A stretch of DNA of 44,153 bases, from the IMG/VR virus record IMGVR_UViG_2541047916_000003, one strand, 5' to 3'. This DNA comes from a virus (Duplodnaviria > Heunggongvirae > Uroviricota > Caudoviricetes). Shown piece by piece: positions 24,963-30,478 of the stretch. The translations under genes and the position numbers were made by a program. The notes beneath the pieces are model-generated. The model ran no database searches. It saw nothing but the letters and a program-made list of their open reading frames with translations, and was not told the DNA's origin. Position 1 is the stretch's first letter. Each line of letters begins with the position of its first letter.

Positions 24963-25152
24963 ACTGCAGGCGCTGCGTCAGGCGCGCCTTGATTTATTAA
25001 CCGGTAAACGGGTGGTGTCTGTCCAGAAAGATGGTCGCAGAATTGAATATACGGCGGCTTCTCTGGATGAGCTTAACCGGGCGATCAATGATGCGGAGTC
25101 GGTACTGGGGACAACCCGGTGTCGCCGTCGTCCGCTGGGAGTGAGGTTATGA
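24946..25152 (+). CDS. W: head-tail joining protein W
   Basis: 68-aa product with ..LTGKRVVSVQKDGRRIEYTAAS.. resembling lambda gpW. Confidence 0.85.
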   Translation: MVTVAELQALRQARLDLLTGKRVVSVQKDGRRIEYTAASLDELNRAINDAESVLGTTRCRRRPLGVRL

Positions 25153-26741
25153 AACGAACGCCTGTCCTGATTGATGTGAACGGCGTTCCGCTTCGTGAGA
25201 GTCTCAGCTACAACGGGGGCGGTGCAGGATTTGGCGGGCAAATGGCTGAGTGGTTGCCACCGGCGCAGAGTGCCGATGCGGCCCTGCTGCCCGCGTTGCG
25301 TCTGGGGAATGCCCGGGCAGATGATCTGGTGCGCAATAACGGAATAGCGGCTAATGCGGTGGCTCTGCATAAGGATCACATTGTCGGGCATATGTTTCTG
25401 ATCAGCTACCGTCCGAACTGGCGCTGGCTGGGGATGCGGGAGACCGCAGCAAAAAGCTTTGTCGATGAGGTGGAGGCGGCCTGGTCGGAATACGCCGAAG
25501 GGATGTTTGGCGAGATCGACGTGGAAGGAAAACGCACGTTCACGGAATTTATCCGTGAAGGTGTGGGCGTTCATGCGTTTAACGGCGAAATCTTTGTGCA
25601 GCCGGTCTGGGATACGGAAACCACGCAGTTATTCCGTACGCGTTTTAAAGCCGTGAGTCCGAAACGGGTGGACACGCCTGGACACGGTATGGGGAACCGT
25701 TTTCTGCGGGCCGGTGTGGAGGTCGATCGATATGGCCGTGCCGTCGCGTACCATATCTGTGAGGATGATTTTCCGTTCTCTGGTAGTGGACGATGGGAAC
25801 GGATCCCGCGTGAACTTCCCACCGGGCGTCCGGCCATGCTGCATATTTTCGAGCCGGTGGAGGACGGGCAGACCCGTGGGGCTAATCAGTTTTACAGCGT
25901 CATGGAACGGCTGAAGATGCTCGATTCCCTGCAGGCAACACAGCTTCAGTCGGCCATAGTGAAGGCGATGTATGCAGCGACGATTGAAAGTGAACTTGAT
26001 ACCGAAAAGGCCTTTGAATATATCGCCGGCGCGCCACAGGAGCAGAAGGATAATCCGCTTATTAATATTCTGGAGAAGTTTTCCAGCTGGTATGACACGA
26101 ATAACGTGACACTGGGCGGTGTCAAAATTCCGCACCTTTTCCCTGGTGATGATCTGAAACTACAGACTGCGCAGGATTCAGACAATGGATTTTCTGCGCT
26201 TGAACAGGCGCTGCTGCGGTATATCGCCGCCGGTCTTGGCGTTTCCTACGAACAGTTGTCCCGTGATTACTCGAAGGTCAGTTACTCAAGTGCCCGCGCC
26301 TCCGCCAATGAGTCGTGGCGCTATTTTATGGGGCGGCGAAAATTTATTGCGGCCCGGCTGGCCACGCAGATGTTTTCCTGCTGGCTGGAAGAGGCACTTC
26401 TTCGGGGGATTATTCGTCCGCCACGGGCACGTTTTGATTTTTATCAGGCGCGATCAGCCTGGTCACGGGCAGAGTGGATTGGTGCCGGAAGAATGGCCAT
26501 TGACGGGCTCAAGGAAGTCCAGGAATCAGTGATGCGCATTGAGGCCGGACTGAGCACGTATGAGAAAGAGCTGGCGCTGATGGGCGAGGATTATCAGGAC
26601 ATTTTCCGCCAGCAGGTCAGGGAATCTGCTGAGCGGCAAAAAGCCGGACTCTCACGTCCGGTGTGGATAGAGCAGGCGTATCAGCAGCAGATAGCGGAGA
26701 GTCGTAGGCCGGAAGAGGAGACAACACCACGTGAGACGTAA
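25149..26741 (+). CDS. B: portal protein
   Basis: 530-aa product from ATG at 25149 (ATGA overlap with W) in the lambda gpB position; family assigned by gene order and size. Confidence 0.9.
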   Translation: MKRTPVLIDVNGVPLRESLSYNGGGAGFGGQMAEWLPPAQSADAALLPALRLGNARADDLVRNNGIAANAVALHKDHIVGHMFLISYRPNWRWLGMRETAAKSFVDEVEAAWSEYAEGMFGEIDVEGKRTFTEFIREGVGVHAFNGEIFVQPVWDTETTQLFRTRFKAVSPKRVDTPGHGMGNRFLRAGVEVDRYGRAVAYHICEDDFPFSGSGRWERIPRELPTGRPAMLHIFEPVEDGQTRGANQFYSVMERLKMLDSLQATQLQSAIVKAMYAATIESELDTEKAFEYIAGAPQEQKDNPLINILEKFSSWYDTNNVTLGGVKIPHLFPGDDLKLQTAQDSDNGFSALEQALLRYIAAGLGVSYEQLSRDYSKVSYSSARASANESWRYFMGRRKFIAARLATQMFSCWLEEALLRGIIRPPRARFDFYQARSAWSRAEWIGAGRMAIDGLKEVQESVMRIEAGLSTYEKELALMGEDYQDIFRQQVRESAERQKAGLSRPVWIEQAYQQQIAESRRPEEETTPRET

Positions 26742-28236
26742 TCTTTCACACATTATTGCCGCAGCATTCAATGAACCGCTGCTTCTGGAGCCCGCCTATG
26801 CGCGGGTTTTCTTTTGCGCGCTCGGGCGCGAGATGGGGGCAGCAAGTCTTTCGGTACCACAACAGCAGGTACAGTTTGATGCTCCCGGAATGCTGGCTGA
26901 AACGGACGAGTACATGGCCGGAGGTAAACGACCGGCCCGTGTTTACCGGGTGGTGAACGGTATTGCTGTACTGCCGGTGACCGGCACGCTGGTGCACCGG
27001 CTGGGTGGTATGCGGCCATTTTCCGGAATGACAGGCTATGACGGCATTGTCGCCTGTCTTCAGCAGGCAATGGCGGATAGCCAGGTGCGGGGCGTACTGC
27101 TGGACATTGACAGTCCGGGCGGGCAGGCCGCCGGCGCGTTTGACTGCGCTGACATGATTTACCGCCTCCGTCAGCAGAAGCCGGTCTGGGCACTGTGCAA
27201 TGACACGGCCTGTTCTGCAGCCATGCTGCTGGCGTCGGCCTGCTCCCGACGGCTGGTTACCCAGACATCCCGTATCGGCTCCATTGGCGTGATGATGAGC
27301 CATGTCAGCTATGCCGGTCATCTGGCGCAGGCCGGTGTGGATATCACGCTGATTTACTCAGGGGCGCACAAGGTGGATGGCAATCAGTTTGAAGCGTTGC
27401 CGGCAGAGGTTCGCCAGGACATGCAGCAGCGGATTGATGCGGCGCGCCGGATGTTTGCCGAAAAAGTGGCGATGTATACCGGTCTGTCTGTTGATGCCGT
27501 CACGGGAACAGAGGCTGCCGTTTTTGAAGGTCAGTCCGGCATTGAGGCCGGGCTGGCGGATGAATTAATCAATGCGTCGGATGCCATCAGTGTGATGGCC
27601 ACGGCGCTGAACAGTAATGTCAGAGGAGGCACTATGCCGCAATTAACTGCAACGGAAGCCGCCGCGCAGGAGAACCAGCGAGTGATGGGGATCCTGACAT
27701 GCCAGGAAGCGAAAGGACGTGAACAGCTTGCCACGATGCTGGCAGGACAACAGGGCATGAGCGTTGAACAGGCCCGGGCGATTCTGGCCGCGGCGGCACC
27801 GCAGCAGCCGGTGGCATCCACGCAGAGTGAAGCCGATCGCATTATGGCGTGTGAAGAAGCGAACGGTCGTGAACAACTGGCGGCAACGCTGGCGGCGATG
27901 CCGGAGATGACGGTGGAAAAAGCCCGCCCGATCCTGGCTGCTTCACCGCAGGCGGATGCCGGACCATCACTCCGTGATCAGATCATGGCACTGGATGAGG
28001 CAAAAGGGGCTGAGGCGCAGGCTGAACAGCTGGCTGCCTGCCCGGGAATGACAGTGGAGAGCGCCCGGGCTGTGCTGGCTGCGGGATCAGGTAAGGCAGA
28101 ACCGGTCTCTGCATCCACAACCGCCATGTTTGAACATTTCATGGCGAACCATTCACCGGCAGCGGTACAGGGTGGCGTGGCACAGACGTCAGCAGACGGT
28201 GATGCGGACGTGAAAATGCTCATGGCCATGCCATGA
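26731..28236 (+). CDS. C: capsid maturation protease C (S49 family) with in-frame scaffold (Nu3-like) C-terminal region carrying a triplicated motif
   Basis: GTG start overlapping B stop; N-terminal two-thirds resemble lambda gpC; C-terminus has three tandem copies of an IMxxxEAxGREQLAxxLAxxPGMTVExAR motif. Confidence 0.9.
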   Translation: MRRNLSHIIAAAFNEPLLLEPAYARVFFCALGREMGAASLSVPQQQVQFDAPGMLAETDEYMAGGKRPARVYRVVNGIAVLPVTGTLVHRLGGMRPFSGMTGYDGIVACLQQAMADSQVRGVLLDIDSPGGQAAGAFDCADMIYRLRQQKPVWALCNDTACSAAMLLASACSRRLVTQTSRIGSIGVMMSHVSYAGHLAQAGVDITLIYSGAHKVDGNQFEALPAEVRQDMQQRIDAARRMFAEKVAMYTGLSVDAVTGTEAAVFEGQSGIEAGLADELINASDAISVMATALNSNVRGGTMPQLTATEAAAQENQRVMGILTCQEAKGREQLATMLAGQQGMSVEQARAILAAAAPQQPVASTQSEADRIMACEEANGREQLAATLAAMPEMTVEKARPILAASPQADAGPSLRDQIMALDEAKGAEAQAEQLAACPGMTVESARAVLAAGSGKAEPVSASTTAMFEHFMANHSPAAVQGGVAQTSADGDADVKMLMAMP

Positions 28237-28272: not shown

Positions 28273-28620
28273 ATGGTGACGAAAACCATCACTGAACAGC
28301 GTGCGGAAGTACGTATTTTTGCCGGTAATGATCCGGCTCATACCGCCACAGGCAGCAGCGGGATTTCCTCGCCAACACCGGCACTGACGCCCCTGATGCT
28401 GGATGAAGCCACCGGGAAACTGGTGGTCTGGGACGGACAGAAAGCCGGTAGTGCGGTTGGCATACTGGTACTGCCGCTTGAAGGCACAGAGACGGCGCTG
28501 ACGTATTACAAGTCGGGAACCTTTGCGACGGAGGCAATCCACTGGCCTGAAAGTGTGGATGAACACAAAAAGGCCAACGCCTTTGCTGGCAGTGCCCTGA
28601 GTCACGCGGCGCTGCCGTAA
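28273..28620 (+). CDS. D: head decoration protein D
   Basis: 115-aa product with ..DPAHTAT..TPLMLD..KLVVWDG..YKSGTF.. resembling lambda gpD. Confidence 0.9.
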   Translation: MVTKTITEQRAEVRIFAGNDPAHTATGSSGISSPTPALTPLMLDEATGKLVVWDGQKAGSAVGILVLPLEGTETALTYYKSGTFATEAIHWPESVDEHKKANAFAGSALSHAALP

Positions 28621-28677: not shown

Positions 28678-29706
28678 ATGGGATTGTTTACGACCCGCCA
28701 GTTACTCGGTTATACCGAACAAAAAGTTAAATTTCGTGCGCTGTTTCTGGAGCTGTTTTTCCGCCGTACGGTGAATTTCCATACCGAAGAGGTGATGCTG
28801 GACAAAATTACCGGAAAAACGCCGGTGGCGGCCTATGTCTCCCCGGTTGTTGAAGGAAAAGTGCTGCGTCATCGTGGTGGTGAAACCCGCGTGTTGCGTC
28901 CGGGCTACGTCAAGCCGAAACACGAATTTAATTACCAGCAGGCGGTTGAGCGCCTTCCTGGTGAAGATCCATCTCAACTGAATGATCCGGCTTACCGCCG
29001 TCTGCGTATCATTACCGATAACCTCAAACAGGAAGAGCACGCGATTGTCCAGGTGGAAGAAATGCAGGCGGTAAATGCTGTGTTGTATGGCAAATACACC
29101 ATGGAAGGAGACCAGTTCGAGAAAATTGAGGTCGATTTTGGCAGGTCGACGAAGAATAACATCACTCAGGGTAGTGGTAAGGAGTGGTCAAAACAGGATC
29201 GTGACACGTTCGATCCTACACATGATATTGACCTCTACTGCGACCTGGCCAGCGGTCTTGTGAATATTGCCATTATGGACGGTACCGTCTGGCGTCTTCT
29301 GAATGGTTTTAAGCTGTTCCGCGAAAAACTGGATACCCGTCGCGGTTCAAATTCTCAACTCGAAACGGCAGTGAAAGATCTGGGCGCAGTGGTGTCCTTC
29401 AAGGGGTATTACGGCGATCTGGCCATTGTGGTGGCGAAAACGTCTTATATAGCAGAAGACGGTATCGAAAAACGTTATCTTCCAGATGGCATGCTGGTTC
29501 TGGGGAATACTGCTGCAGATGGGATCCGTTGTTACGGTGCCATTCAGGATGCTCAGGCGTTGTCCGAAGGTGTGGTGGCCTCTTCCCGTTATCCGAAACA
29601 CTGGCTGACGGTAGGGGATCCCGCCCGTGAATTTACCATGACGCAGTCCGCGCCGCTGATGGTGTTGCCGGACCCGGATGAGTTTGTGGTGGTACAGGTG
29701 AAATAA
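28678..29706 (+). CDS. E: major capsid protein E
   Basis: 342-aa translation resembles lambda gpE throughout (..PGYVKPKHE..KLDTRRGSNS.LETAVKDLG..GDPAREFTM.QSAPLM..). Confidence 0.95.
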   Translation: MGLFTTRQLLGYTEQKVKFRALFLELFFRRTVNFHTEEVMLDKITGKTPVAAYVSPVVEGKVLRHRGGETRVLRPGYVKPKHEFNYQQAVERLPGEDPSQLNDPAYRRLRIITDNLKQEEHAIVQVEEMQAVNAVLYGKYTMEGDQFEKIEVDFGRSTKNNITQGSGKEWSKQDRDTFDPTHDIDLYCDLASGLVNIAIMDGTVWRLLNGFKLFREKLDTRRGSNSQLETAVKDLGAVVSFKGYYGDLAIVVAKTSYIAEDGIEKRYLPDGMLVLGNTAADGIRCYGAIQDAQALSEGVVASSRYPKHWLTVGDPAREFTMTQSAPLMVLPDPDEFVVVQVK

Positions 29707-29757: not shown

Positions 29758-30132
29758 ATGGCAACGAAAGAGCAAAATCTGAAACGGCTTGATGAACTGG
29801 CCCTGATTCTGGGGCGTGAGCCGGATATATCCGGGAGTGCCGCAGAGATAGCGCAGCGGGTGGCAGAATGGGAAGAGGAAATGCAGTCATCCGGCGATGA
29901 TGTACAGGTTATGAATATGGATATCCGGGAGCGGGAAACCGCGGCTCATGATGTTCGTGAGGAAACATCCGGCGCGTTAACGCGCATCAGAGTTCTGACC
30001 TGCCTCCATCTCTGTGGCGTTGATGGTGAAACGGGGGAATCCGTTGAGCTTGCGGATGTTGGTCGGGTGATTCTGATTATGTCCTCAGATGCAAAAACAC
30101 ACGTTGATGGTGGAATGGCTGTTTATGCGTGA
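29758..30132 (+). CDS. FI: DNA-packaging protein FI
   Basis: ATG at 29758 after a GGGGG ribosome-binding site; in the lambda gpFI position. Confidence 0.75.
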   Translation: MATKEQNLKRLDELALILGREPDISGSAAEIAQRVAEWEEEMQSSGDDVQVMNMDIRERETAAHDVREETSGALTRIRVLTCLHLCGVDGETGESVELADVGRVILIMSSDAKTHVDGGMAVYA

Positions 30133-30478
30133 TTTTCAGAATGCCTTTGATGCCGCCCTTGCCGGGGTGGACAGTACGATTGTTGAAGTGATGGGCATCA
30201 GTGCGCAGTTCACCTCCGGTGCACAGCGTGGCGGCGAGGTTCATGGCGTTTTTGACGATCCGGAGTCGCTGGGTTTTGCCAGTAGTGGGATCCGTATTGA
30301 AGGAAGTAACCCGTCATTATTTGTGCTTACGGATACGGTTTGTGCTGTACGGCGTGGTGACACGCTGACCATTAACGGCGAGATGTTCTGGGTGGACCGT
30401 GTTTCTCCGGATGACGGAGGGAGTTGTTATCTCTGGCTCAACCGGGGGCAACCACCTGCCGCCAGCCGTCGCCGCTGA
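30125..30478 (+). CDS. FII: head-tail connector FII
   Basis: Product resembles lambda gpFII (..FWVDRVSPDDGGSC.LWL..); start overlaps FI stop. Confidence 0.85.
   Translation: MRDFQNAFDAALAGVDSTIVEVMGISAQFTSGAQRGGEVHGVFDDPESLGFASSGIRIEGSNPSLFVLTDTVCAVRRGDTLTINGEMFWVDRVSPDDGGSCYLWLNRGQPPAASRRR

Follow-up and report, generated by a model that had tools for sequence, protein, structure and literature searches.

Three diverged copies of a predicted helical module in the protease/scaffold gene of a phage 21-type head operon

Why should the capsid protease gene of a lambdoid prophage carry three copies of a motif that its counterpart in phage lambda carries once? The question is raised by a 44,153-nucleotide (nt) stretch of DNA from a tailed virus (Caudoviricetes; IMG/VR record IMGVR_UViG_2541047916_000003), hereafter the window, in which a preliminary description made from the sequence alone had noted a 501-amino-acid (aa) open reading frame (ORF) of the lambda C type with three tandem copies of a ~40-aa motif. 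The ORF and its repeats are as described: the three peptide strings quoted there were found verbatim at aa 318-354 (27682-27792), aa 371-404 (27841-27942) and aa 418-451 (27982-28083), all within 27680-28110, as diverged tandem copies of a unit of ~40-45 aa. Smith-Waterman alignments between units scored 83-101 against a shuffle mean of ~25 (standard deviation ~5; z = 11.8-16.5), an observed score reached by 0 of 2,000 shuffles, and each unit aligned with the single lambda unit at z = 13.6-22.4. The three copies share 16 invariant residues in 50 aligned columns, and the signature EAxG(R)E...M(T/S)V(E)xA(R/K)xxLAA is kept in every one of them.

Judged by its sequence, the locus is gene 5/gene 6 of phage 21. 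A tblastn search of GenBank phages with the C-terminal 202 aa retrieved M81255.1, 'Bacteriophage 21 head gene operon', at 99.5% identity, and the window gene differs from gene 5 of that record at 1 of 1,506 nt, leaving 500 of 501 aa identical (A373V). The M81255.1 feature table lists gene 5 (501 aa), an in-frame nested gene 6 with a putative ribosome-binding site (RBS) and, inside gene 6, three repeat_regions named 'Tri1 box', 'Tri box' and 'Tri3 box', each annotated 'function unknown; putative'. Transferred to the window, the boxes lie at 27701-27804, 27841-27951 and 27982-28095, and the starts of the second and third are exactly the start bases given for copies 2 and 3 in the preliminary description; we therefore call the copies Tri1, Tri2 and Tri3. 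In the complete phage 21 genome of 2022 (OL657228.1), the gene products are named 'capsid protease/scaffolding protein' and, for the nested one, 'scaffolding protein'. Nested start, RBS, boxes and positions are the same in phage 21 and in the window, there is no difference of substance, and every feature of the phage 21 gp5/gp6 (lambda C/Nu3-type) family that can be checked in sequence was found at the window locus; the window version belongs to a lambdoid prophage beside icd in E. coli of the Nissle 1917/CFT073 type. The triplicated motif was thus already known through M81255.1, and its finding here is the rediscovery of an annotated feature. As a discovery it carries little weight, since the feature is on public record and roughly one in three finished E. 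coli genomes has it.

The head genes of the window stand in the order portal, S49 peptidase, decoration protein and major capsid protein (Table 1), with an 11-nt overlap between the portal gene end and the protease gene start. The protease ORF matched the head maturation protease cluster phrog_53 (E = 2.8e-229); within it, the Pfam family PF01343 matched at aa 146-293 (E = 3.7e-35) and the SppA structures 3rst/4kwb at aa 77-290 (E = 4e-16). In a residue alignment, Ser162 and Lys214 of the window protein correspond to Ser166 and Lys218 of lambda C, of which Ser166 is reportedly catalytic; a peptidase S49 domain with conserved Ser and Lys is present, and its catalytic role is predicted. The preliminary description had correctly placed the repeats in the part of the gene that corresponds to the Nu3-like scaffold. 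From an internal ATG (Met302) 4 nt downstream of a Shine-Dalgarno (SD) sequence, the putative nested gene 6 product is predicted to comprise Tri1, Tri2, Tri3 and the C-terminal tail. The gene 6 RBS annotated in M81255.1 falls at window positions 27623-27627, and OL657228.1 also lists a putative RBS. Equivalent pairs of SD and ATG occur in Gifsy-1, in a four-copy E. coli variant and in lambda (Met309), and in phi80 gene 6 is annotated at the start equivalent to window Met302.

Where RefSeq starts lambda nu3 (Met239 of C; 201-aa product), the window has Ile239 (ATT, 27445-27447), and this start is not conserved. The lambda Met309 start carries the SD and ATG caGGAGGgcgaATG, the counterpart of window Met302 (27622-27636), and a product begun there would have 131 aa and a mass of 13.4 kDa, in agreement with the reported mass of purified gpNu3; the 201-aa RefSeq annotation may be too long.

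Compared with the window protein, lambda C shares the position in a B-C/Nu3-D-E gene order, the S49 domain, the nested in-frame scaffold, the motif and a similar tail, and is 54% identical over the N-terminal ~370 aa. In line with the preliminary description, it is shorter (439 aa in NC_001416) and has a single motif copy, at aa ~355-400. A low-complexity spacer of ~46 aa precedes that copy. The window copies each align to the lambda copy (BLASTP E = 1e-16, 1e-11 and 3e-9), and Tri1 is the one nearest to it. The suspected expansion stands when measured against lambda, which has one copy, but not as an oddity of this window: three copies are normal for head modules of the phage 21 type, and Gifsy-1 has three as well.

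How far the triplication extends was assessed at several scales. The full-length gene (coverage of at least 80%, identity mostly 95-100%) occurs in 1,866 of 5,426 complete E. coli genomes, about one third, often in more than one copy per genome. Among GenBank phages, 113 records match the C-terminal region and 20 of these span at least 80% of the three-repeat query, including phage 21, ev017, PhiR57_1, 4A7, D2, 1W, 3W, the PhiR12 series and Gifsy-1; in lambda-, phi80- and HK225-like phages the match is limited to the length of one unit. A 49-position profile made from the three window copies and compared with 1.84 billion cluster representatives retrieved 515 proteins at E <= 1e-3; among the 144 matches listed, all representatives not previously collected, 137 had one copy and 7 had two or three. 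When one genome per species was taken, three copies were found only in E. coli/Shigella and Trabulsiella guamensis, and the other 47 loci, many of them lambda itself, had one. A single copy is the general state of the family and presumably the ancestral one.

Copy number among enterobacterial prophages ranges from 1 to 4. Three copies occur in a Trabulsiella prophage protein (71% identity), in Gifsy-1 STM2605 of Salmonella (same architecture, positionally orthologous copies, 65% overall identity) and in a 505-aa metagenomic relative with matching gene context (P0088). A 538-aa E. coli prophage protease (WP_096934546.1) has the same architecture and nested start but four copies, and is carried by 104 of the 5,426 complete genomes (~2%). 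A 198-aa metagenomic protein (P0140) has two copies and is encoded by a standalone gene rather than nested in frame, as shown by an in-frame stop codon two codons before its start.

When homologues were sought with the C-terminal 202 aa, most of the sequences retrieved were partial genes of draft assemblies; the search served to spot two- and four-copy forms, not to estimate frequencies. The sole two-copy allele found in a finished genome is that of E. coli O157:H7 strain 7636 (NZ_CP038421.1, 2124428-2125786), which encodes 452 aa with Tri2 precisely deleted (junction ...ILAAAAPQ/ADAGPS...) and lies in a degraded prophage in which a truncated major capsid gene has become joined to a tail gene. 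Other in-register deletions and hybrids between Tri boxes appear in the draft-assembly proteins P0009, P0015, P0018 and P0021 (1 to 53 database sequences each); the two-copy alleles P0015, P0018 and P0021 are each represented by one to three database sequences on short draft contigs. Since two-copy forms in the phage 21 lineage come only from draft contigs and one defective prophage, we do not claim that a functional two-copy form exists there.

The three copies are old. In a unit-by-unit identity comparison, repeat units cluster by position and not by genome: the first repeat of the window is 78% identical to the first repeats of Gifsy-1, Trabulsiella and P0088 each, the second is 80% identical to the second of Gifsy-1, and the third is 59-63% identical to other third repeats, whereas identity between positions in the window is 46-56%. 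The copies are therefore positionally orthologous, and the triplication is older than the split between these prophage lineages of Escherichia, Salmonella and Trabulsiella. Copies 2-4 of the four-copy variant are mutually 81-90% identical and therefore recent, which points to an additional duplication or homogenisation, while the two copies of P0140 are nearest to each other, a similarity that indicates an independent duplication.

Each of the three copies is maintained as protein under purifying selection. Over 68 distinct 501-aa alleles, the ratio of non-synonymous to synonymous substitution rates (dN/dS) was 0.22, 0.27 and 0.12 for the first, second and third repeats, compared with 0.11 for the protease region, 0.42 for the linkers and 0.33 for the tail. 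In an alignment of 12 proteins most invariant columns fell within the Tri module, and by this comparison no other part of the scaffold portion is as well conserved in the family.

Phage D2 illustrates where exchange has occurred in this operon. It is 98-100% identical to the window over terminase, portal, protease, D and E, bar one patch at window ~26400-27000, where identity drops to 57-77% over the last ~110 portal codons and the first ~90 protease codons; this suggests that the portal C-terminus and the protease N-terminus were exchanged as a co-adapted unit. No recombination joint was seen in D2 between the protease and the Tri region, the joint lying instead at the portal C-terminus and the N-terminus of C. 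A second divergent patch lies at ~29850-30300, in the FI/FII region.

Structure prediction gives the module a plausible form. AlphaFold2, given aa 300-501 and a shallow alignment of 25 close relatives, returned a model of moderate to low confidence (mean predicted local distance difference test, pLDDT, 68.8; predicted template modelling score, pTM, 0.27), in which every repeat has three short helices at pLDDT ~80 (Tri1 and Tri2 ~80; Tri3 ~78-81) and the linkers between repeats fall below 60-66. Each copy is thus predicted to be a small independent three-helix unit, with short flexible linkers rich in Pro, Ala and Gln in between. The tail helix STTAMFEHFMAN (~28114-28149; model residues 163-174) is of low confidence (pLDDT ~51-55), and an F/L-x-x-x-M...P pattern, seen by eye, follows the last repeat a single time in lambda, in Gifsy-1 and in distant homologues.

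Domain searches gave little to compare the module with. The motif had no usable match in Pfam, where a helix-hairpin-helix (HHH) match stayed below threshold (E = 0.095); the 200-aa nested protein had no match in NCBIfam, and a sequence search of the PDB with the motif gave nothing usable. Coverage of the motif comes from PHROG clusters alone, among them phrog_8399 and phrog_8940, with three or four matching stretches each. At the level of fold there is a generic resemblance to UBA domains and to the three-helix-bundle binding modules that bacterial surface proteins carry in tandem (protein A domains, GA modules, Embp/Ebh repeats), at 4-13% identity and with no sign of homology. No sequence or significant fold match to the helix-turn-helix domain of the P22 scaffold was found either, and the Tri module is not a member of that family. 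What it shares with P22 gp8, and also with the scaffolds of phi29, SPP1 and 80alpha, is a small helical element in an otherwise flexible scaffold, a functional analogy only (PMC11565965, PMC11922011); in contrast to the P22 element it is internal, repeated and neutral to acidic.

What, then, might three modules do? Our preferred reading, which we hold tentatively and at slightly under even chances, is by analogy that the Tri module is an independent shell-binding unit, that gp6 is a trivalent scaffold, and that gp5 is co-packaged through the same modules. Each module would attach to the major capsid protein gp7 on the inside of the assembling shell, and one gp6 chain could bridge neighbouring coat subunits during procapsid formation; the protease gp5, carrying the same modules, would be packaged with the scaffold and, after assembly, would degrade the scaffold and itself so that the fragments can leave. 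Copy number, 1 to 4 in nature, would tune scaffold valency and not capsid geometry. We infer shell binding from yeast two-hybrid contacts in lambda, where Nu3-E, Nu3-Nu3 and Nu3-C interactions were reported (PMC3224144), and from the helical or helix-turn-helix motifs with which the scaffolds of P22, phi29, SPP1 and 80alpha reportedly bind coat protein or direct assembly (PMC11565965, PMC11922011). Conservation of the nested arrangement with its SD in Gifsy-1, the four-copy variant, lambda and phi80 also speaks for it. Phage 21 and lambda have similar heads, both T=7, and a gross change of capsid geometry is for that reason unlikely. The preliminary description had suggested that the expansion could alter assembly stoichiometry or C/Nu3 processing; the computed results speak neither for nor against such an effect. 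That the module serves the whole lambda-C-type S49 protease/scaffold family as a universal shell-binding (or assembly-nucleating) unit is a bolder proposal, possible but one that we would lean against.

Several observations weigh against shell binding by the Tri module. GenBank's own note on the boxes reads 'function unknown', and lambda functions with a single copy, so that in principle one would do. The coat-binding element of 80alpha lies at or near the C-terminus and the P22 helix-turn-helix is basic, whereas the modules are internal, the last repeat ending at aa 453 with a 48-aa tail after it, and have a net charge of 0 to -3. In P22, too, the coat-binding element is C-terminal (PMC11565965, PMC11922011), and the tail could be the coat binder while the module does something else. 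The module is moreover strongly conserved across phages with diverged coat proteins, a pattern that self-association or a conserved partner would explain equally well or better, and the overall confidence of the structural model on which its outline rests is low.

These points lead to the most serious competitor, in which the module mediates self-association or binds a partner other than coat (scaffold, protease domain or portal), coat binding is left to the non-repeated tail, and the triplication would create a scaffold network or a higher local concentration. We consider it unlikely, though with real arguments behind it. The coat-binding element of 80alpha has a tail-like position; the conserved F-x-x-x-M...P helix of the tail occurs once after the last repeat in all lineages and takes the position of the P22 coat-binding element; and the conservation of the module is far above what would be expected if it tracked divergent coat proteins. 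The Nu3-Nu3 and Nu3-C contacts in lambda (PMC3224144) would likewise suit it. A portal partner fits less well, as the portal-linked part seems to be the gp5 N-terminus, which is not in gp6: the patch exchanged in D2 joins the portal C-terminus to the first ~90 aa of C, and protease, Tri region, D and E remain 98-100% identical. AlphaFold2 modelled the repeats apart rather than packed together, which speaks weakly, given the pTM, against self-association. It is improbable, by comparison, that the extra copies are largely redundant, one module working as in lambda and the other two being tolerated duplicates that act mainly as a folded spacer in place of the lambda low-complexity stretch upstream of the single motif. 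Such a substitution is suggested by the arrangement in lambda and phi80, where one module follows a long T/S/A/Q-rich spacer, as against ~10 residues before Tri1 in phage 21, and the variation in copy number among related prophages, with in-register unit deletions and hybrids among database entries, would also suit it. Mere tolerance is made less likely by purifying selection on each copy that equals or nears that on the protease domain and is clearly stronger than that on linkers and tail, by positional orthology kept since before the phage 21, Gifsy-1 and Trabulsiella lineages split, and by retention of the signature in all copies; and the only two-copy allele from a finished genome sits in a defective prophage.

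A last possibility, that the repeat is a feature of the DNA (regulatory sites or a recombination hotspot) or an artefact of assembly or annotation, has next to no probability, and we treat it as excluded by the tandem-repeat, codon-position and CII-site counts. M81255.1 does list the boxes as DNA 'repeat_region' features, and the phage 21 genome record annotates CII sites at two minus-strand matches to the pattern TTGYN6TTGY inside gene 6 (27639-27652 and 27873-27886). Chance alone, however, would give 10.2 matches to that pattern in the window, which has 6, and the sites were rejected as a meaningful signal. Conservation is at the amino-acid level: in a codon-level comparison the copies are 56-62% identical in amino acids, 59-67% in DNA and only 35-41%, near-random, at third codon positions. 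Tandem Repeats Finder reported no tandem DNA repeat, and a seed-based search for DNA repeats found fragments of 12-25 nt only, at ~150-nt spacing. An assembly artefact is excluded because the identical gene occurs in many independently finished genomes, as well as in an independently sequenced phage; the judgement in the preliminary description that copies so diverged are no recent artefact was sound.

What may be new here is minor: the breadth of the single module, the spectrum of one to four copies with its four-copy lineage, positional orthology and per-copy purifying selection. We did not find the breadth (515 representatives), the copy spectrum or the per-copy selection in the literature searched, which covered the original authors' view of the boxes through the GenBank notes only. 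If the module were indeed a universal shell-binding unit, nature would offer a valency series for the rate and fidelity of procapsid nucleation, with one module in lambda and phi80, two in the standalone metagenomic scaffold, three in phage 21 and Gifsy-1, and four in another E. coli prophage lineage. Because the T=7 lambdoid head modules that carry these versions are alike in other respects, lambda/21 hybrids would allow scaffold valency to be tested cleanly by genetics.

Table 1 Coordinates of the protease/scaffold gene, its parts and the neighbouring head genes in the window
Feature	Position	Strand	Basis or remarks
Portal gene (lambda B / phage 21 gene 4 homologue)	25149..26741	+	ORF; start as annotated by RefSeq in the identical prophage of Nissle 1917; locus coordinate + 6730 = window coordinate
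Phage 21 gene 5-type (lambda C-type) prohead protease/scaffold fusion, 501 aa	26731..28236	+	GTG start
S49 (SppA-like) serine peptidase domain, aa ~77-293	26959..27609	+	Pfam PF01343, SppA structures
Shine-Dalgarno sequence AGAGGAGG	27622..27629	+	4 nt before in-frame internal ATG
Putative nested in-frame gene 6-type scaffolding protein, 200 aa	27634..28236	+	20.5 kDa, pI 4.6; coding sequence in both phage 21 records
Repeat 1 (Tri1), aa 312-359	27664..27807	+	Motif hidden Markov model (HMM), 84.7 bits
Repeat 2 (Tri2), aa 365-408	27823..27954	+	Motif HMM, 77.7 bits
Repeat 3 (Tri3), aa 413-453	27967..28089	+	Motif HMM, 65.9 bits
C-terminal tail, non-repeated, aa 454-501	28090..28233	+	One predicted helix; acidic/hydrophobic end (..DADVKMLMAMP)
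Head decoration protein (lambda D homologue)	28273..28620	+	100% identical to phage 21 SHP
Major capsid protein (lambda E homologue, 60% identity)	28678..29706	+	100% identical to phage 21 gp7

Two sets of database matches call for caution. Many matches in assemblies of unrelated organisms, among them Neobacillus, Oceanobacillus, Kitasatospora, an Akkermansia metagenome-assembled genome, Shewanella, Pseudomonas, Leeuwenhoekiella and Veillonella, hardly differ from one another in tblastn and motif-HMM statistics: they are 54% identical to the window protein, with a 494-aa open frame and one motif copy at aa 410-455, and often lie on low-coverage contigs of ~48 kb. Our guess is that they are contamination from a lambda spike-in or from cloning. 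The 258-aa cluster representative P0151 is a Gifsy-like scaffold in which nearly all Ala have become Val, Thr Met or Ile, Ser Phe or Leu, Pro Leu, His Tyr and Arg Cys, with Gln kept. This is the pattern expected of global C-to-T conversion, as in bisulfite-treated reads, with TAG called as Gln, and the entry is probably a database artefact.

The window gene is 100% identical to the copy in the icd-adjacent prophage of E. coli Nissle 1917 and to those in strains CFT073 and ABU 83972. The identical Nissle 1917 prophage carries an ompC-like porin gene and an iss/bor lipoprotein gene as cargo, and sitABCD adjoins it.

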